This document shows, one piece after another, positions 25,376-32,114 of a stretch of DNA of 32,266 bases (position 1 is its first letter; every line of letters starts with the position of its first letter). Under the pieces are notes generated by a model. That model was not told the origin of the DNA. It worked only from the letters and a program-made list of their open reading frames with translations, and did no database searches. The DNA comes from an uncultured Thermoplasmatales archaeon. GTDB lineage: Archaea > Thermoplasmatota > E2 > DHVEG-1. The stretch spans positions 1 through 32,266 of the forward strand of contig CAZFAZ010000079.1 of NCBI GenBank assembly GCA_964517155.1, given 5' to 3'. The position numbers were made by a program, and so were the translations under genes.

Positions 25376-25876
25376 TTAATTGTTAATATTTACTTTACAA
25401 GGTGAGGGTAGTTTCATACCTGCTTTGCGTAAAGATTCTTTTGCTTGAGGGACAAATTGATCATGCGTTTCAATAGTCATTACAATCTGGTCAGCTTGTA
25501 CTTCAGCTGCTGTTCCAACGTTTTTACCGTATGCTGCACGCATTCCTTGACTAACACGATCTGCACCAGCACCAGTTGCTTGTTTGTTTTCACGGAGAAC
25601 CACATGTGGATAAACTCTAACTTGTAGTCTAAAATTTGTAGTTCCAACTTTTTTTTCCATAGCGCGTGTGACAGTTATACGAGCTGCTTCAAGAGCATTA
25701 TGTCTTATATGACATCTCTCAATTGAATGAAGTGCGACTTTTTTTGGAAATTTATCGGTTTTATTTCCTACTACAAACTGTGTTATACGGGAAGCAGGAA
25801 CTCCGCCCAGGTACTCTTTACGTGTTGTAGGCATTCCTCTAACATATCTATACATTGATGAAGGTTTACGTGCCAT
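25376..25876 (-). CDS. rpl10e: 50S ribosomal protein L10e/uL16
   Basis: ALEAARI and YPH.VLRENKQATGAGADRVSQGMR..YGK motifs. Confidence 0.97.
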   Translation of the reverse strand: MARKPSSMYRYVRGMPTTRKEYLGGVPASRITQFVVGNKTDKFPKKVALHSIERCHIRHNALEAARITVTRAMEKKVGTTNFRLQVRVYPHVVLRENKQATGAGADRVSQGMRAAYGKNVGTAAEVQADQIVMTIETHDQFVPQAKESLRKAGMKLPSPCKVNINN

Positions 25877-25949
25877 TTTGCTACACCTATTTTTTTAGTT
25901 GATAAGAAAAGCGAAATAAGGTTAGTATTTATAAATGTAATGGAGTGTT

Positions 25950-25965
25950 CAGTACTTCCGAAAGT
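25950..25965 (+). repeat. Left terminal inverted repeat
   Basis: cagtacttccgaaagt; the CAGTAC start resembles ISH3-family ends. It lies 180 nt beyond the transposase stop. Confidence 0.75.
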
Positions 25966-26144
25966 GGGGACAAAATAAAGGATTTTGTATAAAAAACTAT
26001 CACAAGATCCGTTTTATAGGAGTAAAAATCTGATAGTTATGAGAAAAAACAGTATATTTCTCCTTAAAACTACTAAAAAAGTGGGATAGAAATATGTTTT
26101 AAACTAATTGAAAAGTATGAATAAAAAAACGGAGAACATGATTG

Positions 26145-27707
26145 CTATCCTCCTCCAGGATCTATGGTGTAAAGTACTGTTCCAAAGTATTTTGAAGTAA
26201 TCAAATGATCCTCTTTTACATATCCAAACAATGCAAGCCAAATTAAGATGTCAGCAAGTAACCAAAGGTTATACAATAAAACTGAAAATAGGAAATAGAA
26301 AATTCTAATCTGATAATTTTTAGAAGTAGTTTTAGGTAAGAAAGACTGTTTTTTGACTCTATAACTTGTCTCAATTCCCCAACGTTTACTATACAATAAA
26401 AATAGTCTTTTAGCAAGACTTATGTCATTTTCATCAAATATTTCATTAGTTGCAAATGCCCTTTTCTTTCCTTCTTCATCATTGATGATAACTACGTTAA
26501 AAACACAATTTTCCATCTCATAATCGTTTATAACTGCGGGTGACGGCATAATTTCTAAAAGTCTTTTAATCCTTGAATTTGCAGAACAAGGAATGAGGAA
26601 CTTAAGTCTGAAATTTTTGAAAACATTGATAGAATTTGAATCGAAAAACCCACGATCTGCATATATTCGATTTATCTTTATTCTTTGCTGAGTAAAACTA
26701 AATAGTTTCTTTAGGATCTGTTCTTTACTGTCAAATGGACCAACAGGCAAAGCAAGAAGCGTAAAACGTTTACCTGCCTCAACTATGTTGATTGTTGCAA
26801 ATTTATAACATTTACTGGTTCCTCGTTCTGGTTTTTTACCAACAACCATTGGAGTGCTTCTATCACCATAGTAGAACCATTCTGTATAGTCAATTGCAAC
26901 ATCATATTGTTTGTGAATATCTAATGTGTTTGACTGTTTTATCATAGTCCAAAGGATTTCAAAAAGAGTAAGATACATCTTTTGAATTTCCTTGAGATCA
27001 TTATGATTTTTGATATGATACAAAAGTGTATCTGCATCGGGAGTTTTATTGTCCTTTAGTTCTTTTAGTGTTTTACTACCATTCTCTGCAAAATCACGTG
27101 TCATCCCCATATGTAACATGAGATCAATGAACTGATTTTTCTGATAAACTGTATTATGTCGTAATTTAAAATCAATAAATGGGGAAAATCTTTTCTTAAT
27201 AAGTTGACAGACTTCTCTTGTATTTTTCTTTCTCTGTAGGTCTTGATTTCTTTTCTTCGTAAGTTTCTTAGGTCTTTTAGGTTCCAACGTTTGAATATCA
27301 AATAATATTCCAAATTTTTCAGATACTTCCTCTATCTTTGTAAGTATGAAATCCAATAGTTCTCTTTTTTCATTGTCTAATATGTGATGTAAAAAATAAC
27401 CTGTTGTTCGTCTATCAGGTATTTCTGTTAAACCAAGTAACAATGTTTCTTCTGGATGTAATTTTAGATATTGGTGTAATTGTTTTTGATATTTGATTTT
27501 CTTTAATTTTTGAAAAATCAATAGTCTAAAAAGTGAGTAGTAATCAAATTTAATTTTTCTATAATCCTGATTAGAAATATCTGTAATTTTTAATTTATTT
27601 AGGAATTCTGCTATGCAGATATTCTTTTCTTTTTTGAATTGTTCGAATGTGTTATATATCTCCAATTCTATTTTTTCTTTGGAGATATTTTGTTTGCTTC
27701 GCGGCAT
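26145..27707 (-). CDS. ISH3/IS4-type DDE transposase with N-terminal extension
   Basis: IDYTE.FYYG (D1), ADRGF (D2) and YSKRWGIETSYRVKK (YREK signature, E); FATI.IV..GKRFTL is typical of the ISH3 group. Confidence 0.92.
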   Translation of the reverse strand: MPRSKQNISKEKIELEIYNTFEQFKKEKNICIAEFLNKLKITDISNQDYRKIKFDYYSLFRLLIFQKLKKIKYQKQLHQYLKLHPEETLLLGLTEIPDRRTTGYFLHHILDNEKRELLDFILTKIEEVSEKFGILFDIQTLEPKRPKKLTKKRNQDLQRKKNTREVCQLIKKRFSPFIDFKLRHNTVYQKNQFIDLMLHMGMTRDFAENGSKTLKELKDNKTPDADTLLYHIKNHNDLKEIQKMYLTLFEILWTMIKQSNTLDIHKQYDVAIDYTEWFYYGDRSTPMVVGKKPERGTSKCYKFATINIVEAGKRFTLLALPVGPFDSKEQILKKLFSFTQQRIKINRIYADRGFFDSNSINVFKNFRLKFLIPCSANSRIKRLLEIMPSPAVINDYEMENCVFNVVIINDEEGKKRAFATNEIFDENDISLAKRLFLLYSKRWGIETSYRVKKQSFLPKTTSKNYQIRIFYFLFSVLLYNLWLLADILIWLALFGYVKEDHLITSKYFGTVLYTIDPGGG

Positions 27708-27719
27708 TCATTTTTCTCC

Positions 27720-27751
27720 ATGCCTTAGGGAGTTGCACCTCCCTATGGCAT
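27720..27751 (-). promoter_or_regulatory. GC-rich stem-loop in the transposase 5' leader containing an SD-like GGGAGGTG
   Basis: atgcc-t-tagggag-ttgcac-ctcccta-t-ggcat: 12 complementary pairs with one mismatch, ending 12 nt before the transposase ATG. Confidence 0.7.
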
Positions 27752-27767
27752 CTTATTTAATCGTAAT

Positions 27768-27844
27768 TACACTTTTACACATAAGTGTATAAATTATATG
27801 TTAATAAGTGTTGTGGTTAAGTGTATAAGTGGAAAAGTTTAAAA
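27768..27844. promoter_or_regulatory. Divergent promoter with (T/A)AAGTGTA-like octamer repeats (putative RHH operator)
   Basis: TAAGTGTA at 27782 and 27818, TAAGTGTT at 27805, TAAGTGGA at 27826; inverted copies at 27768 and 27776. TATA-like boxes at 27788-27793 (minus) and 27838-27844 (plus). Confidence 0.65.
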
Positions 27845-27874
27845 CCTTCATAAAATATTCAGTTTTTGATAACT

Positions 27875-28015
27875 ATGGGTAGAATAGATGTAATATTGCC
27901 TGATGATCTCGAAGAACAATTTCGAAAAAAAGTATTTGAAAAATTTGGAATGAAAAGAGGAAATATTACAGCAGCTATCCAAGAAGCAATTGAAAATTGG
28001 ATTGGGAAAAATTAA
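27875..28015 (+). CDS. 46-aa ribbon-helix-helix (CopG/Arc-like) DNA-binding protein (not in ORF track)
   Basis: Manual translation MGRIDVILPDDLEEQFRKKVFEKFGMKRGNITAAIQEAIENWIGKN*: alternating beta strand, LPDDL helix cap, G turn and second helix I.EAI..W. BRE/TATA about 30 nt upstream. Confidence 0.85.
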   Translation: MGRIDVILPDDLEEQFRKKVFEKFGMKRGNITAAIQEAIENWIGKN

Positions 28016-28323
28016 CTACTAAAATTTAATGCAATTGACAAAAGCATAGACCCAATAGCAACTATTACTGTTAATAGAAAATACATGGATGCTTTTTTAC
28101 TATCTTCCTTTATCTGTTTTGATATATCAGTGATTTCATTTTGCGCTTCTTTAGTTTTTTGTAAAGTTTTTGCAATATCCTCGGAAAGATATCCTCTAAA
28201 AACATTTTCTTCAAATTGTTTATAGTCCTTTTCTTTAAATCCTAAATCTATCCACTTTCTTCTTTTTATCATCATCTTTTGTTCTGCAGTTAGGTAAGGT
28301 ATAACTTTGTTTTCTTTTTTCAT
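28012..28323 (-). CDS. Hypothetical protein with coiled coil and C-terminal TM anchor
   Basis: GGAGTGAG SD before the ATG at 28323; hydrophobic C-terminal helix. Confidence 0.7.
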   Translation of the reverse strand: MKKENKVIPYLTAEQKMMIKRRKWIDLGFKEKDYKQFEENVFRGYLSEDIAKTLQKTKEAQNEITDISKQIKEDSKKASMYFLLTVIVAIGSMLLSIALNFSS

Positions 28324-28398
28324 ATTTCTCACTCCAAATTAAATATCAAATAAAATCCATTAATACTTTAAAGCTTGGGAGCCTAATTTATATTTATA

Positions 28399-28977
28399 TC
28401 AATCATCCCATTCAAAATAGTCTCCCCAATATCCCATATCAAACAGTATATCACATATACCGTTTTCAAAACCAAATTGAATGGGCCACATATCCCCAGT
28501 ATAGCTATTTGAACCCGTTATCGCATTATCAGCACTTAAAAAAGAACTCCATGCTTTATTATAATCTTTTGATAAAAGATATTCTAAACCATCTATTGCA
28601 GAATCTCGACAATCCTCATATTCATATGCGAACAACTTACCTGAATCACTATAATAAGTATTTTCACCTAATTCTTCGATGATATCATCGTTATCTAAAA
28701 TTATTTTTTTATGTTTTTCAAATTCAGTTTGATTATAGTTTAATATATAGTCTATTTCGTTTTGTGAAGTATCAAAATTATATGAACCAGATTCATCTAC
28801 AAAAAAACCCGCGACTCTATCCATAGCGTTTTCAAACTTTTCATGTAATGAATCATAATCGGGCTTTGATTCAGTATCATTATTATTCTGGTCGGTTTTT
28901 TCTGTCGTACATCCACTAATAATTCCAATCCCAATAACCATTATGGAAATCATACAAAATAATATCTCTTTTTTCAT
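28399..28977 (-). CDS. Acidic putative lipoprotein
   Basis: Signal peptide ending in lipobox-like ISGC followed by a polar linker. Confidence 0.75.
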   Translation of the reverse strand: MKKEILFCMISIMVIGIGIISGCTTEKTDQNNNDTESKPDYDSLHEKFENAMDRVAGFFVDESGSYNFDTSQNEIDYILNYNQTEFEKHKKIILDNDDIIEELGENTYYSDSGKLFAYEYEDCRDSAIDGLEYLLSKDYNKAWSSFLSADNAITGSNSYTGDMWPIQFGFENGICDILFDMGYWGDYFEWDD

Positions 28978-28980
28978 TTT

Positions 28981-29361
28981 CTAATCCTCAAACCAAGAAG
29001 TATCTCCAACATCAACGATTTTTATAGCCTTAATATAAACAATTTCTCTTATTATGCCGCTTCCATCACATCGATAACAATTGCCATAGCAATCTTCAAA
29101 ATAGCCATCCTTTATCAGAATTTTTCCATAAATCGGATCATCATAGTATGTTGCTTCAACCCATCTGCGGCATTTTCCAGAGCCATCACAGCTAGGACAT
29201 ACGTCTGTTTTTCCTGTGTAATTATAATATCCATATTCATTTACACCATCATATTTGAACTCTTCAACATCAGAAGATTTGTTATTTGTTTCGATACATC
29301 CACTAGATACAAGAATTAGTGTTATTACAATTACGCTTACTATAAATGCTTTGCATTTCAT
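28981..29361 (-). CDS. Putative lipoprotein with DnaJ-type zinc-finger motifs
   Basis: MKCKAF... signal with SSGC lipobox; CPSCDGSG and CYRCDGSG motifs. GAGAGG SD before the ATG at 29361. Confidence 0.75.
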   Translation of the reverse strand: MKCKAFIVSVIVITLILVSSGCIETNNKSSDVEEFKYDGVNEYGYYNYTGKTDVCPSCDGSGKCRRWVEATYYDDPIYGKILIKDGYFEDCYGNCYRCDGSGIIREIVYIKAIKIVDVGDTSWFED

Positions 29362-29372
29362 ATTTTTGCCTC

Positions 29373-29651
29373 TCAATTTTTGCTGCCACAATAAGGACAT
29401 AATTCCGCATCAAAAGGAATAGAACGACCACATTCGTTACAATATATTTTACTTTTTGGTTTAATGTTTGTTTTTTCTTGTCGTATAGTTATTGTTTGTT
29501 GCTCAGATGAAAAAGCACCGATAATAAGAAGAATGAAACCAAGTAAAGCTATAGGCCCTCCAAGAATAACTCCGAAACCGCCGGTAATGGCTGTAAAAAA
29601 AAGACCAAACAGCAATAATATAAAGCCTGTTATTGTAAGACCTTCTCTCAT
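29373..29651 (-). CDS. Two-TM membrane protein with C-terminal zinc ribbon
   Basis: CNECGRSIPFDAELCPYCG; GAGG SD. Confidence 0.85.
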   Translation of the reverse strand: MREGLTITGFILLLFGLFFTAITGGFGVILGGPIALLGFILLIIGAFSSEQQTITIRQEKTNIKPKSKIYCNECGRSIPFDAELCPYCGSKN

Positions 29652-29671
29652 TTTATCCTCTTTATTTCAAA

Positions 29672-29887
29672 TCATTTAAAATTTTTACCACAGTATGGAC
29701 ATAACTTTGCATCAAAAGGAATAGCACGATTGCAGGCAGGGCATTTTCTATCAGGTTCTTCAGAAATAGACTTTGGAGTATCTTTCTCTATAAAAATTGT
29801 TTTTTTACCTGTTGCTGCCATTGCGATTAAAATAATAATGACTATAACTAACAATATTGCTATTAAACAAAGCATTTTTTCCCTCAT
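29672..29887 (-). CDS. Single-TM membrane protein with C-terminal zinc ribbon
   Basis: CPACNRAIPFDAKLCPYCG; ATGA overlap with the upstream SHOCT gene. Confidence 0.85.
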   Translation of the reverse strand: MREKMLCLIAILLVIVIIILIAMAATGKKTIFIEKDTPKSISEEPDRKCPACNRAIPFDAKLCPYCGKNFK

Positions 29888-30354
29888 TTTTCTTTTATTA
29901 TATCTTCTTTCATTTGTTCATAATCTGTCTTTGTGATTTCTCCTTTGGCATACCTTTTAGTAAGTATCTCGATAGCGTCTTCCTCTTGATGGGTCTCTAC
30001 TTTTGGTTTGGTTACATCTTGTTTTTGACTCTTATATTTTGCAAGAAATCCAAAAAACATAATTGCTACACCTATAAGAATAACAAAAGGAAGTCCATTA
30101 TATACACCTCTAGCGCTCTCTATATTTTCCTCTGCTTCTATACCCATATCATAGTACATATCCCATGCGGATTCCCAGTCATCAAGATATTTAATCGAAG
30201 CTTTCCTCATTTCAGCAGATTCTACTATTATATCTTCTTGTTCTGGAATATATACGTTATTAATATAAAACATTCCTCCAATACCGCCGATAATAATAAA
30301 AAAACCAATAACTATAATCCATATCCAGCTTTCTATCTTATTATTCTCCATCAT
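29884..30354 (-). CDS. Two-TM membrane protein with C-terminal SHOCT domain
   Basis: DAIEILTKRYAKGEITKTDYEQMKEDI matches the SHOCT pattern. Confidence 0.85.
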   Translation of the reverse strand: MMENNKIESWIWIIVIGFFIIIGGIGGMFYINNVYIPEQEDIIVESAEMRKASIKYLDDWESAWDMYYDMGIEAEENIESARGVYNGLPFVILIGVAIMFFGFLAKYKSQKQDVTKPKVETHQEEDAIEILTKRYAKGEITKTDYEQMKEDIIKEK

Positions 30355-30383
30355 TTTTACTCCAATTCTCTATTTTAAAACAA

Positions 30384-31343
30384 TTAGTCGTTTATAAACT
30401 TAATTTTTTTCCATCCTTTCGTTATTTCTAAATAATCGCCATTATAGGCTAATTTAGATAGAATGGATCTTACAACTAATGATCTTAGGTTTTTCATACA
30501 TTTTACTAAAGATTCAGATTCAATTTTTTCTGCTTTATGAAAAATCTTGTTTCTTACATTTAAAATCATTTTAATATCATAATCATAGTCTTTTAAACCA
30601 ATGTTGTTATTCTCCATAAATTCAATAATTCTGTCGCTAATAGGTCTTCTTTTTAATTCAGATATTTTCTTAAAAAGTTCTTTTTTTCTATCCTCCGATA
30701 GTTTATCAAAGGAAGAATGATTTGTTAATACATTTTTTATTTCTGAAGTCAAGCCGTTTGGTAGCCCATCATTTCCATAAATAAATTCCTCAGTATTATA
30801 CAGAACTAATGACTCTAAACTAATATATGGAAAAATAAAGCAATTTGTAAGCATATTATCTTCAATTCCTGCCAAATAAAAAGCAATAGGAAATAATAAA
30901 TTATTTATTCTTAAAAAATCAGGTTCAGTTATTTTCTTCTCTATTTGCTTTAATAATTTTAATATATTTTCTTCATCCATAATTCTTTCTTTTGGAAATT
31001 TTGCTGATTTTGTACCAAAGAAATTACCCGTATGTAAACCAGGAACTTTTGGTGAGATATTATGACCAGTACGTGAAATACGAATTCCTTGTGCAAATGA
31101 TAATATCCAATTTATTTGATCGATTTCATTTTCTTTAAGTGTAATTTTTTTCTTTAATTCATCTGTGTCTTCTCCTTGAATCTCAGATATAGCATTAAAT
31201 GTAATATAGTCTTTTTTTTCATTATTCATCTTTTTAATAACTTCATCATATTTTTCAACTTTATAAAAATTAAAAGTGCCTATTTGAAAATCATTTTGTA
31301 TTTCAAGATTCTTTACAGAAAAGTTAATTTTCGTAGTTATCAT
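30384..31343 (-). CDS. HEPN-domain protein (ApeA/MAE_28990-like architecture), putative RNase
   Basis: LLSFAQG-like segment (ILSFAQG), ISLESL glutamate and C-terminal RNKIFH (R-x4-H) motif. Confidence 0.7.
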   Translation of the reverse strand: MITTKINFSVKNLEIQNDFQIGTFNFYKVEKYDEVIKKMNNEKKDYITFNAISEIQGEDTDELKKKITLKENEIDQINWILSFAQGIRISRTGHNISPKVPGLHTGNFFGTKSAKFPKERIMDEENILKLLKQIEKKITEPDFLRINNLLFPIAFYLAGIEDNMLTNCFIFPYISLESLVLYNTEEFIYGNDGLPNGLTSEIKNVLTNHSSFDKLSEDRKKELFKKISELKRRPISDRIIEFMENNNIGLKDYDYDIKMILNVRNKIFHKAEKIESESLVKCMKNLRSLVVRSILSKLAYNGDYLEITKGWKKIKFIND

Positions 31344-31433
31344 ATTTTGAAAATAAGTTCCATCTGTTTAATGTTTATGCCAATGAAGTAGATTTTAATT
31401 ATATTTTTATAGTAATTGTAGACATAGTAATTG

Positions 31434-32114
31434 ATGAGAGCAGATCTGATTAAAGAAATCCGTAAGGCGATTAGGAATGGAAAACCAAAAATTCAGGTTT
31501 CTTATGAGTTTGGTTTATCATATAAAAAAGTGTTAAGACTAACCAGCGATATTAAAACGAAAAGGGGTATTTCCCAGGTTCTTAGAAAGAAAATTCGTAA
31601 TGAAGTTAAAAATGGTAGATCTAAGAGACAAACTGCTCTTTATTTTGGTGTTTCAGAAAATACTGTATGTTATCATACAAAAGATATTTGTTTACGTCCT
31701 TTTAAAAACCTGCGAGTTCATGATAAAAAGTTAGAACTTATGAAAGATCTTTTGAGAGATGGTTATGCATTGCCTTCTAAGAAATATCATACACCTGAAT
31801 ATAACGAGCTGAAACGACATTTCCCATCTATTTGTAAAGTTAAGATGTATGATCGTGTTATCTTTTATCTTGAGGATAAAAAGGATGCTGCAACACGTGC
31901 TTTTCTTGATAATTCAAAACGTAAAATTATTAGTTATCAAGAGTTGAAACGAGTAACGAAAACTTTTGACTCTAATCTAAATATTAAGGAGAAAAGACAG
32001 ATTATCAAAGATAACCGTTCTAAAAAGTTATTCAAGAAGGAAAAAGACGGTGATTATTCTTTGGCATTTTTTTACATTCGGAGGTACTTTGATAACAAAA
32101 ACATTTATATATAG
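31434..32114 (+). CDS. Basic protein with two tandem N-terminal HTH-like repeats; C-terminus reads through the right TIR
   Basis: Repeats LIKEIRKAIRNGKPKIQVSYEFGLSYKKVLRLTSDI and LRKKIRNEVKNGRSKRQTALYFGVSENTVCYHTKDI. The YIRRY codons are the TIR sequence. Confidence 0.8.
   Translation: MRADLIKEIRKAIRNGKPKIQVSYEFGLSYKKVLRLTSDIKTKRGISQVLRKKIRNEVKNGRSKRQTALYFGVSENTVCYHTKDICLRPFKNLRVHDKKLELMKDLLRDGYALPSKKYHTPEYNELKRHFPSICKVKMYDRVIFYLEDKKDAATRAFLDNSKRKIISYQELKRVTKTFDSNLNIKEKRQIIKDNRSKKLFKKEKDGDYSLAFFYIRRYFDNKNIYI
32074..32089 (-). repeat. Right terminal inverted repeat (imperfect)
   Basis: acattcggaggtactt; reverse complement aagtacctccgaatgt versus left cagtacttccgaaagt. Confidence 0.65.

Follow-up and report, generated by a model that had tools for sequence, protein, structure and literature searches.

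A helix-turn-helix gene at the end of cargo-carrying, ISH3-related transposons in Thermoplasmatota archaea

We analysed a 32,266-nucleotide stretch of DNA (hereafter, the window), which is contig C79 of a 1.59-Mb, 32% G+C genome of an uncultured Thermoplasmatales archaeon assembled in 91 contigs. The analysis centred on an open reading frame (ORF) close to the right end of the window (31434..32114, + strand), which encodes a helix-turn-helix (HTH) protein. This gene is a core part of an apparently undescribed, cargo-carrying family of transposons related to the insertion sequence (IS) family ISH3. We consider it probable, at roughly 0.7, that its product is a sequence-specific DNA-binding protein of ~220 amino acids (aa) and that the gene is one of the two invariant genes of this transposon family, in which it is paired with a transposase gene at the opposite element end. 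An earlier account of the region, made from the letters of the DNA alone (the sequence-only reading), had proposed that the gene encodes a dedicated end-binding, targeting or regulatory partner of the transposase rather than random cargo. The synteny described below establishes the partnership, whereas the choice among the three roles is one of likelihood and is weighed in the last section.

A transposase gene and an HTH gene at opposite ends of mobile elements

Within the source genome, the transposase gene and the HTH gene are each found three times, on the same three contigs (C79, C59 and C50), and in all three copies they face outward. DNA similarity among the copies starts and stops exactly at two end motifs, and an all-against-all protein comparison identified only the transposase (62-72% identity) and the HTH protein (31-63%) as common to all three, so that, with the repeats, these are all that the copies share. 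The intervening genes differ, with the cargo of the window resembling that of the other two copies only in a zinc-ribbon motif. The element on C59 is 8.6 kb long and is flanked on both sides by the 5-bp direct repeat ATATT.

The pair was then sought in 197 species-level genomes of the class; since these are interrelated and mostly incomplete, the presence counts are descriptive only. HTH profile matches were found in 83 genomes, including 71 of the 107 in the window's own family, with up to 10 copies per genome, and transposase matches were likewise found in 83. Both genes are present in 61 genomes, the HTH gene only in 22, the transposase only in 22 and neither in 92. A long-type transposase (E<=1e-100) was identified in 63 genomes, 53 of which also carry the HTH gene. 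The co-occurrence that the sequence-only reading had named as a check is thus seen in the 61 genomes with both genes, and pairs on the same contig lie at opposite ends of an element, with differing content between them.

This arrangement was read from 20 loci that were fetched because the two genes share a contig. In 17 of these the genes form an outward-facing pair, 0.4-8 kb apart and separated by differing cargo, and in the other three they are convergent across the junction of two different elements. Further outward-facing pairs span 3.95-22.65 kb, and over the family the cargo between the two genes ranges from 0 to about 20 kb. The cargo is unrelated among elements and has always entered on the upstream side of the HTH gene; none separates the gene from the element end. 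A fixed pair with differing cargo marks the HTH gene as a core component, and not as part of the cargo.

The element ends are defined by the motif AGTA[CG]yTCCGAAWGy, which lies about 185-197 bp beyond the transposase stop in all elements examined and, at the other end, within the last codons of the HTH gene; with one extra terminal base, the ends read CAGTA...TACTG. The two ends are nevertheless not alike. Conservation extends over 33 bp at the HTH side versus 16 bp at the transposase side, and one position differs consistently (GAAAGT at the transposase side, GAATGy at the HTH side), implying that the ends are functionally distinct. An alignment of 13 HTH ends revealed that the inner 17 bp of the HTH-side end are conserved at that side only and also encode D-D-x-L-x-x-F, while the subterminal sequence of the transposase side is poorly conserved except for a short AAATCTA...CTAA patch. 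An inner-repeat module (CTACCAAGGA) is common to both ends in just one subfamily and was not used as evidence for a binding site.

Evidence of mobility comes from target duplications, which were identified by eye in the printed flanking sequences. A perfect 5-bp duplication flanks 11 of the 14 two-ended elements (the misses being the window copy, the middle element of L051, and L053) and seven of eight at additional loci, giving 18 of 22 elements in total. Among the duplication-flanked elements are large ones (G031:C4, 22.65 kb; G031:C3, 21.06 kb; G103:C75, 17.9 kb), one of 3.95 kb (G097:C119), and elements of 1.8 kb (with a KaiC-like gene, no transposase and an HTH gene that is disrupted), 1.17 kb and 312 bp. 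These are therefore unit (non-composite) cargo-carrying DDE transposons, in which a single repeat pair surrounds the transposition genes together with unrelated passengers, bounded by a target duplication. Non-autonomous derivatives (L085 2199-2510; L094 1567-2617 and 2625-3796; L099 797-2596; L051 1599-5201) comprise the 312-bp miniature, which has both end types, elements of ~1.05-1.17 kb, and HTH-bearing elements that lack an intact transposase; the HTH gene is retained in the transposase-less derivatives L099 and the middle element of L051.

The passengers themselves are diverse. They include a PAS histidine kinase with a response regulator, an Eco57I-type methylase with ParB-ASCH, SF1 and DEAD helicases and a dCTP deaminase; PKD-domain M28 and C25 peptidases, ArsP, a low-molecular-weight (LMW) phosphatase, DsbD, NikR and FecCD transporters; and a cluster of SNF2 helicase, DUF1156 methylase, DUF499 and YaaC genes, as well as UbiA prenyltransferases. 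On G031:C4 (L063+L064), G031:C3 (L065+L066) and G103:C75 (L071+L072) we noted genes for ArsP, LMW phosphatase, DsbD, NikR and a FecCD ABC system, the helicase-DUF1156 methylase-DUF499-YaaC set, and a caspase-RNase HII fusion.

In addition, every element carries a small ORF of 46-134 aa in the slot divergent from the transposase start (window 27866-28015, + strand; L040-L055; C59). The position is conserved but the genes are not homologous, belonging to ribbon-helix-helix (RHH; window), AbrB-like, zinc-ribbon and winged-helix families. At a distance of a few bases from the HTH-side end, the flanks at L044, L045, L046 and L099 (genomes G059, G112 and G103) have a further sequence, ACAGAACC, in common, which may be a preferred target or a piece of another repeat.

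The element in the window and its read-through gene

The element in the window extends over 6140 bp (25950-32089). Its parts and immediate surroundings are the following (coordinates, strand, description).

25950..25965, no strand: transposase-side terminal inverted repeat, the left element end (CAGTACTTCCGAAAGT); homology to copy C59 starts here and genome G091 diverges here
25966..26144, no strand: non-coding subterminal region of ~180 bp, from the repeat to the transposase stop; spacing kept across the elements examined
26145..27707, -: ISH3-like DDE transposase of 520 aa, outward-facing (Pfam, NCBIfam, motif)
27866..28015, +: RHH-like small ORF of 49 aa, divergent from the transposase start (weak Pfam RHH_5/DUF7750 matches)
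28012..31343, -: cargo of seven minus-strand ORFs, encoding small membrane or secreted proteins, two zinc-ribbon membrane proteins, a SHOCT-domain protein and a 319-aa ORF product (ORFs, Pfam)
31400..31433, +: putative archaeal promoter, with an A/T-rich TATA-like box ~25 bp before the ATG (predicted from the sequence only)
31434..32114, +: HTH gene, encoding two transposase-type HTH repeats, a winged-helix-like domain, helices and a Lys/Ser-rich tail, and with the inverted repeat as its last codons (ORF, homologues, model)
32057..32089, no strand: HTH-side terminal inverted repeat; its outer 16 bp (32074-32089) are the counterpart of the left repeat (13 HTH ends aligned)
32090..32114, +: tail encoded by the flank, comprising part of F219 and the residues DNKNIYI, with the TAG stop (sequence)

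The left arm AGTACTTCCGAAAGT (25951-25965), which lies ~180 bp past the stop of the transposase gene, agrees with the reverse-complemented right arm in 13 of its 15 positions. Taken within the window alone, this inverted repeat does not stand out from chance: at least two hits arise in 33 of 100 shuffles, and about one chance occurrence of a 14-mer with <=3 mismatches is expected. We judge the repeat to be real because its boundaries are shared by the homology between copies, by more than 20 loci in other genomes at which identical end motifs delimit elements, and by an element-less relative. In the latter, the same-genus genome G091, the flank is homologous up to 25949 and diverges exactly at 25949/25950; the G091 contig stops 37 bp past that point. 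Contigs from two DNA sequencing runs gave joints with only 20-32 letters on the shorter side, too short to trust as signs of excised circles, empty sites or transcripts. A separate IS of ~1.8 kb around the transposase alone, nested inside the larger unit, was also considered and rejected, as no convincing repeat pair was found near the transposase, and no copy of the end motif was found on the transposase's inner side.

This particular copy may, however, not have moved as a unit from 25950 to 32089; it could be a recombinant, or two element halves brought side by side, which we regard as a real contender for this one copy, if the less probable account of it. Its flanks differ (GTGTT on the left, TGATA on the right), so that the two ends may not have arrived in one event, and HTH and transposase modules are discordant between copies. 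Furthermore, the arrays described below offer many chances of recombination between elements, and the right flank, just 177 bp up to the contig end, has no counterpart in two same-genus genomes. Set against this are the architecture, orientation and 6.14-kb size of the copy, all of which are typical of duplication-bearing elements, the intactness of both genes, and the fact that recombination between copies can erase duplications without loss of mobility.

Around and within the element, several neighbours deserve mention. Upstream of the ribosomal protein L10e (uL16) gene (25376-25876, -), 73 bp (25877-25949) separate the gene start from the transposase-side end, which stands just past the gene's A/T-rich putative promoter. 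Among the cargo, two adjacent small membrane proteins (29373-29651, -, and 29672-29887, -) both bear a C-terminal zinc ribbon (...IPFDAxLCPYCG) and have in common a 42-nt direct repeat with 86% identity (29386-29427 and 29688-29729); they are tandem paralogues. Copy C50 also has a cargo ORF with a related motif. The 319-aa cargo ORF (30384-31343, -), the next one upstream of the HTH gene, matches HEPN_Apea weakly and below cut-off (E 0.02). A PADLOC scan returned no match for the HTH protein or the window cargo.

The ORF that covers the HTH gene is listed as 31431..32114 (+), encoding 227 aa if a TTG start is used, while the ATG at 31434 gives 226 aa, in agreement with the size of the window's own entry (P0001) in the protein collection. 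The spacing of the TATA-like box suggests that the mRNA is leaderless, a reading of the upstream letters. The protein is rich in lysine (16.4%) and arginine (9.3%), and a BLOSUM62 local alignment of residues 5-40 with residues 50-85 revealed a 36-aa internal repeat that scores 65, compared with 20.8 +/- 4.1 for shuffled sequences, none of 2000 of which reach 65. The sequence-only reading had described a lysine- and arginine-rich protein with two HTH-like repeats of about 36 aa, and composition, shuffling and the structural model presented below all agree with that description.

It had likewise claimed that the repeat itself forms the codons for FYIRRY and that the tail and stop lie outside, which the coordinates confirm. 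Codons 32070-32087 (TTT TAC ATT CGG AGG TAC) spell FYIRRY and overlie the motif ACATTCGGAGGTACT (32074-32088). The element ends at 32089. FDNKNIYI and the TAG stop (32112-32114) are encoded beyond or across that boundary; flanking DNA thus supplies the last eight residues and the stop. Since the terminal repeat contains no stop in any frame in the direction of the gene, translation exits the element and ends at whatever stop the flank provides. The three paralogues of the source genome end in ...SLAFFYIRRY followed by FDNKNIYI, in ...SLAFFHIRMY followed directly by a stop, and in ...RFLHSEVL followed by IFYPKKYYF, that is, the same DNA read in two frames and then unrelated residues.

A search of 5.8 billion proteins extended this pattern. 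It identified 96 homologues of the HTH protein, all from metagenomes or metagenome-assembled genomes, the few named ones being labelled Thermoplasmatota archaeon; no relative was found on viral contigs. A repeat-encoded peptide stands near the C-terminus in 82 of the 96 and is followed by 0-56 unrelated residues, the repeat being read in frame A (LHSE/DVL) in 26, in frame B ([YH]IRxY) in 55 and in frame C in one; the remaining 14 are truncated, early-stopping (3) or long forms. The expected conservation up to a repeat-encoded tail (...FF[YH]IRxY or, in another frame, ...FLHS[ED]VL), with unrelated residues beyond it, is therefore what the homologues and the three paralogues display. A 1-nt indel immediately before the outer repeat sets frames A and B apart, and in both the protein retains the D-D-x-L-x-x-F that precedes the repeat. 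The tail of several frame-A homologues is SSSSESSYQGPT, which corresponds to read-through over a 5-bp spacer into a neighbouring element's transposase-side end. Directly beyond the repeat, the frame-B homologues have F (17), stop (15), C (11), L (7), W (3) or Y (2), all specified by T-initial codons, which places the last conserved base of the element at that position. Since the repeat-encoded peptide occurs in three frames with unrelated tails, it is the DNA that is conserved there and not the peptide; because one stretch of DNA serves both as the gene's 3' end and as the repeat, the frame runs out of the element as a side effect, and the peptide is not selected.

We also noted longer forms of the HTH protein with one to three extra N-terminal HTH modules, in open frames of 398-589 aa (G095:C187, L073 1409-2935; G103:C59, L074; G015:C50, L076; G087:C153, L077). 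The form on G095:C187 is the 589-aa frame and has four modules, and at least two of the longer forms still terminate in the terminal repeat.

Relatives of the transposase and of the HTH protein

The transposase matches Pfam DDE_Tnp_1 (29.1 bits; cut-off 23) and DUF772, and of the NCBIfam models ISH3 (NF033541) scores best by far, covering residues 219-484 with an E value of 1.1e-48 and 165.9 bits, which is below the 225-bit cut-off; IS4 follows at 1e-4. We found 827 relatives at E<=1e-30. According to the family descriptions in PMC2266710, ISH3 elements have a catalytic signature Y-(2)-R-(3)-E-(3)-(R) in place of the full YREK motif, and its ISH3 table gives ends of CRGT, direct repeats of 4-5 bp and sizes of 1225-1500 bp. 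The signature is present in the transposase as YSKRWGIETSYR (residues 439-450), with Y439, R442 and E446 invariant among 45 relatives. Most ends read CAGT, and the 18 of 22 elements with 5-bp duplications, the window copy excepted, fall within the tabulated range. Size does not agree, since the element in the window has 6140 bp and other autonomous elements 3.95-22.65 kb.

As far as the ISH3 accounts in these sources go, then, the elements described here resemble that family in their best transposase match, signature, CAGT ends, 5-bp duplications and archaeal hosts, and differ from it in their larger size, in a second invariant gene with cargo, and in an extra N-terminal transposase region of ~218 aa. 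The IS231-group elements in the relevant part of PMC2266710 are likewise IS4-related and are enlarged by extra genes between repeat and transposase gene; unlike the present elements they are bacterial (Bacillus cereus group) and 1450 to 5400 bp long, and the passages on them mention no conserved accessory DNA-binding gene at the far end. Passenger DNA is described there as confined to the IS231 group, such modularity being at that time unseen in other IS families. The pertinent section of a 2019 survey counts passenger-carrying DNA transposons among the elements undetected in archaea (PMC6563490), and ISH3 is handled as a simple IS where it appears in PMC13343696. The sequence-only reading knew of no helper described for ISH3, and in the full-text literature, including the relevant passages of these three papers and with ISfinder and TnPedia outside its scope, we found no ISH3-type element with an accessory gene or cargo.

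An AlphaFold model of the HTH protein, built on a 60-sequence alignment, has a pLDDT of 84 and a pTM of 0.55. In this model, two tri-helical HTH units (3-36 and 48-81) are followed by a helix/beta-hairpin/helix domain (98-159), helices to ~200 and a low-confidence tail. Pfam matches over 60 members are to HTH models of transposase, invertase or LuxR type (HTH_Tnp_ISL3 in 38, GerE in 36, HTH_23 in 14, HTH_28 in 9 and the resolvase HTH_7 in 7), mostly below cut-offs. HTH_Tnp_ISL3 matches the window protein at 17.5 bits, below its cut-off of 27.4, and 38 of the 60 relatives at E<=0.01 (best 7.6e-7), a likeness of type rather than membership. Structural neighbours in VIA-align (Z 5-6.8) are the N-termini of the IstA, Tc3, SETMAR and TnsB transposases, the HTH domains of Hin and of Tn3 resolvase, and Cbp1, and those of residues 88-162 are winged-helix domains. 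In a profile search of PDB sequences the best match was a KorA-domain protein (E 0.01). ESM Atlas hits, taken as leads only, reach a best score of 0.80 and include IS3-type HTH_Tnp_1/HTH_28 proteins at 0.77-0.78. From the predicted fold together with these profile matches, the protein probably binds DNA.

Two known classes of protein offer a comparison. The bipartite (paired-like) HTH domains of Tc3, Mos1 and SETMAR (PDB 1u78, 1tc3 and 7s03) also consist of two tandem tri-helical units, with VIA-align Z-scores of 6.2 (83 aligned, rmsd 14.4), 6.4 (44 aligned, rmsd 3.0) and 5.2, a range that is common for helical models. These domains bind bipartite inverted repeats, and the HTH-side end is likewise bipartite, but they belong to the transposase chain itself, whereas the HTH protein is a polypeptide of its own. 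Cbp1, the CRISPR repeat-binding protein of Sulfolobales (NF040595, PDB 2lvs), is also a tandem-HTH protein that binds repeated DNA. The matches to it are weak (20.9 bits and E 2.6e-4 for a 140-bit cut-off; Foldseek probability 0.90; VIA Z 6.2), and, unlike Cbp1, the HTH gene stands in no CRISPR context.

End-to-end arrays and the role of the HTH protein

Many elements adjoin one another. A search of the 197 genomes with a pattern that allows 0-30 nt between two outward-facing end cores identified 34 end-to-end junctions in 29 genomes (for example L050 2820-2850, L051 1581-1611 and 5189-5220, L052 764-794, and L099 2584-2614). The spacer between ...TACTG and CAGTA... is 5 bp in 30, 6 bp in three and 9 bp in one; none of the 34 has a spacer of 0-4 bp or 10-28 bp, and a reversed-pattern control gave no junction. 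An HTH gene runs into the junction from one side in 23 cases, a transposase gene lies ~190 bp away in seven, and one gene of each kind is present in five; the same gene is never found on both sides, and nine junctions have neither gene nearby. Judged by the diagnostic base, 26 are clean pairs of a transposase end with an HTH end, three look same-type (one of which is mixed, judged by its genes) and five are ambiguous. Four junctions lie in single-contig genomes (G054 twice, G055 and G093) and are thus chromosomal. In five arrays (L047, L050, L085, L094 and L099) the target duplication of an adjoining element matches the spacer exactly, and in the G103:C75 array the same 5-mer occurs three times. 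These observations point to insertion exactly beside a resident end.

IS30 targets inverted repeats, and in the tandem junctions of (IS30)2 and IS21 the ends abut a few bp apart and insertion occurs next to a resident end. The junctions described here differ in that the spacer is a 5-bp duplication, in that different elements are joined, including miniature ones, and in that they are chromosomally stable.

An element of this family consists, in order, of CAGTA with a 15-16-bp inverted repeat, ~190 bp of non-coding DNA, the outward transposase gene, a small variable DNA-binding ORF, 0 to ~20 kb of unrelated cargo, the outward HTH gene and the 33-bp conserved end, with the 5-bp target duplication outside all of these. 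In the mechanism that we favour, the HTH protein would bind element DNA and act with the transposase. Candidate sites are the inner module of the HTH-side end and the promoter region that separates the transposase gene from the small regulator, singly or together, and the protein might mark or assemble the HTH-side end or else set the level of transposition, as do InsA of IS1 and OrfA of the IS3 family. Its production from a transcript that crosses the element end, beside the probable site, would favour action on its own copy. A role in binding element DNA is suggested by the entry of cargo upstream of the gene only, the distinct ends, the retention of the gene in transposase-less derivatives and the transposase-like modules. 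On these grounds we infer that the HTH protein assists or regulates transposition.

InsA and OrfA are small element-encoded HTH proteins that bind the inverted repeats and modulate transposition, and their genes lie upstream of the transposase frame, overlap it and share its strand. Here, by contrast, the gene stands at the opposite end, kilobases of cargo away from the transposase, and its product has three DNA-binding modules.

A number of observations weigh against this reading. HTH-bearing genomes without a transposase match (22 of 83) and long-transposase genomes without the HTH gene (10 of 63) both exist, although, most genomes being incomplete, these absences are weak evidence either way. 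The window element has no target duplication, and the 312-bp miniature has both ends and neither gene, indicating that the HTH gene is not needed in cis. Identities of the two proteins agree well in close pairs (79/79, 88/80 and 87/80% for transposase/HTH), with a Pearson r of 0.56 over 66 pairs, but are discordant elsewhere (72% versus 31% for C79-C59; 82% versus 50% for L046-L048); this partial congruence indicates either that modules have been exchanged or that the HTH protein evolves much faster. Three homologues end ~20 codons short of the repeat (...KKLFQDD/E), so that either the very C-terminus can be done without or these copies are degenerating. With regard to structure, all the VIA-align Z-scores lie in the tool's common range for helical models and thus support a multi-module DNA binder and nothing finer, and a Foldseek search of the whole model against the PDB returned nothing at E<=0.001, the top rows being tandem winged-helix proteins and Cbp1 (E 0.04-0.3). 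A Mu-repressor-like DNA-binding domain shared with the transposase was rejected, the hhalign probability being 0.3, with no homology to the transposase N-terminus. Complex prediction for the transposase and the HTH protein with two alignments scored 0.01 and 0.00 against a mark of 0.32, which is not evidence either way. Finally, the slot ORF at the transposase promoter may be the actual repressor.

The last point bears on a somewhat unlikely alternative, in which the HTH protein itself is purely a transcriptional repressor or immunity factor that binds operators in the promoter region, or at its own promoter, and lowers transposase expression, with no role at the ends and a merely historical position there. 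HTH and GerE-type matches are typical of regulators; at the compact locus L054 the HTH gene directly follows the zinc-ribbon slot ORF in an operon-like pair divergent from the transposase; and HTH-only derivatives persist, as repressor-only copies could. The repressor gene of phage Mu also lies at an element end and reads outward. This account nevertheless leaves unexplained both the fusion of the gene's 3' end with the end repeat in 82 of 96 homologues and the upstream-only entry of cargo, and the classical repressor position by the transposase promoter is already taken by the small DNA-binding ORF.

The arrays raise a different prospect, decidedly unlikely in our estimate, that the HTH protein is a target selector or tether that recognises the end of a resident element and steers an incoming transpososome to the flanking 5 bp, yielding head-to-tail arrays. 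The 30 of 34 junctions at exactly 5 bp, with none at 0-4 bp and none in the reversed control, are what it predicts, as are the spacer-identical duplications in five arrays and the threefold 5-mer of G103:C75, and weak TnsD-family matches occur in four of 60 members (best E 7e-4). Yet the arrays are tied no more to the HTH protein than to the transposase itself, the TnsD matches are sub-threshold and concern a generic HTH only, and most duplication-bearing insertions do not adjoin another element. That the gene is a passenger (an ordinary host transcription factor) or a chance ORF beside a repeat can be dismissed: no curated family is reached at cut-off and there is no PADLOC or defence match, but 96 homologues with nine invariant and 28 near-invariant columns (60 aligned), a model pLDDT of 84, and a position and orientation fixed at the element end while other internal genes vary all speak against it.

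What emerges, then, is an ISH3-related, cargo-carrying transposon family with two core genes, of which the HTH gene is the defining second component. ISH3 elements, as tabulated, are small archaeal IS of 1.2-1.5 kb; here an ISH3-related transposase is regularly paired with an uncharacterised DNA-binding gene, together with which it mobilises 0.4-20 kb of varied genes, and the cargo takes in signalling, restriction-modification, helicase/nuclease, dCTP deaminase, metal-handling, lipid-synthesis and surface protease genes. For annotation, the HTH C-terminus differs with each insertion site, and gene callers will give it chimeric tails. The family provides a two-protein system in which to ask how ends are discriminated in the IS4 superfamily, how an IS grows into a transposon, and how new copies come to land beside old ones. 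One larger conjecture, which we think unlikely as it stands, is that the HTH protein is the end-recognition or tethering factor of a gene-capture system, guiding incoming copies to the 5 bp next to resident ends and thereby building head-to-tail arrays of autonomous, HTH-only and miniature elements, after which the internal ends of an array would be lost and the elements fused into ever larger units, up to at least 22.6 kb. If true, this would be an archaeal counterpart of the assembly of bacterial resistance islands, run by an ISH3-type enzyme and a dedicated multi-HTH partner.

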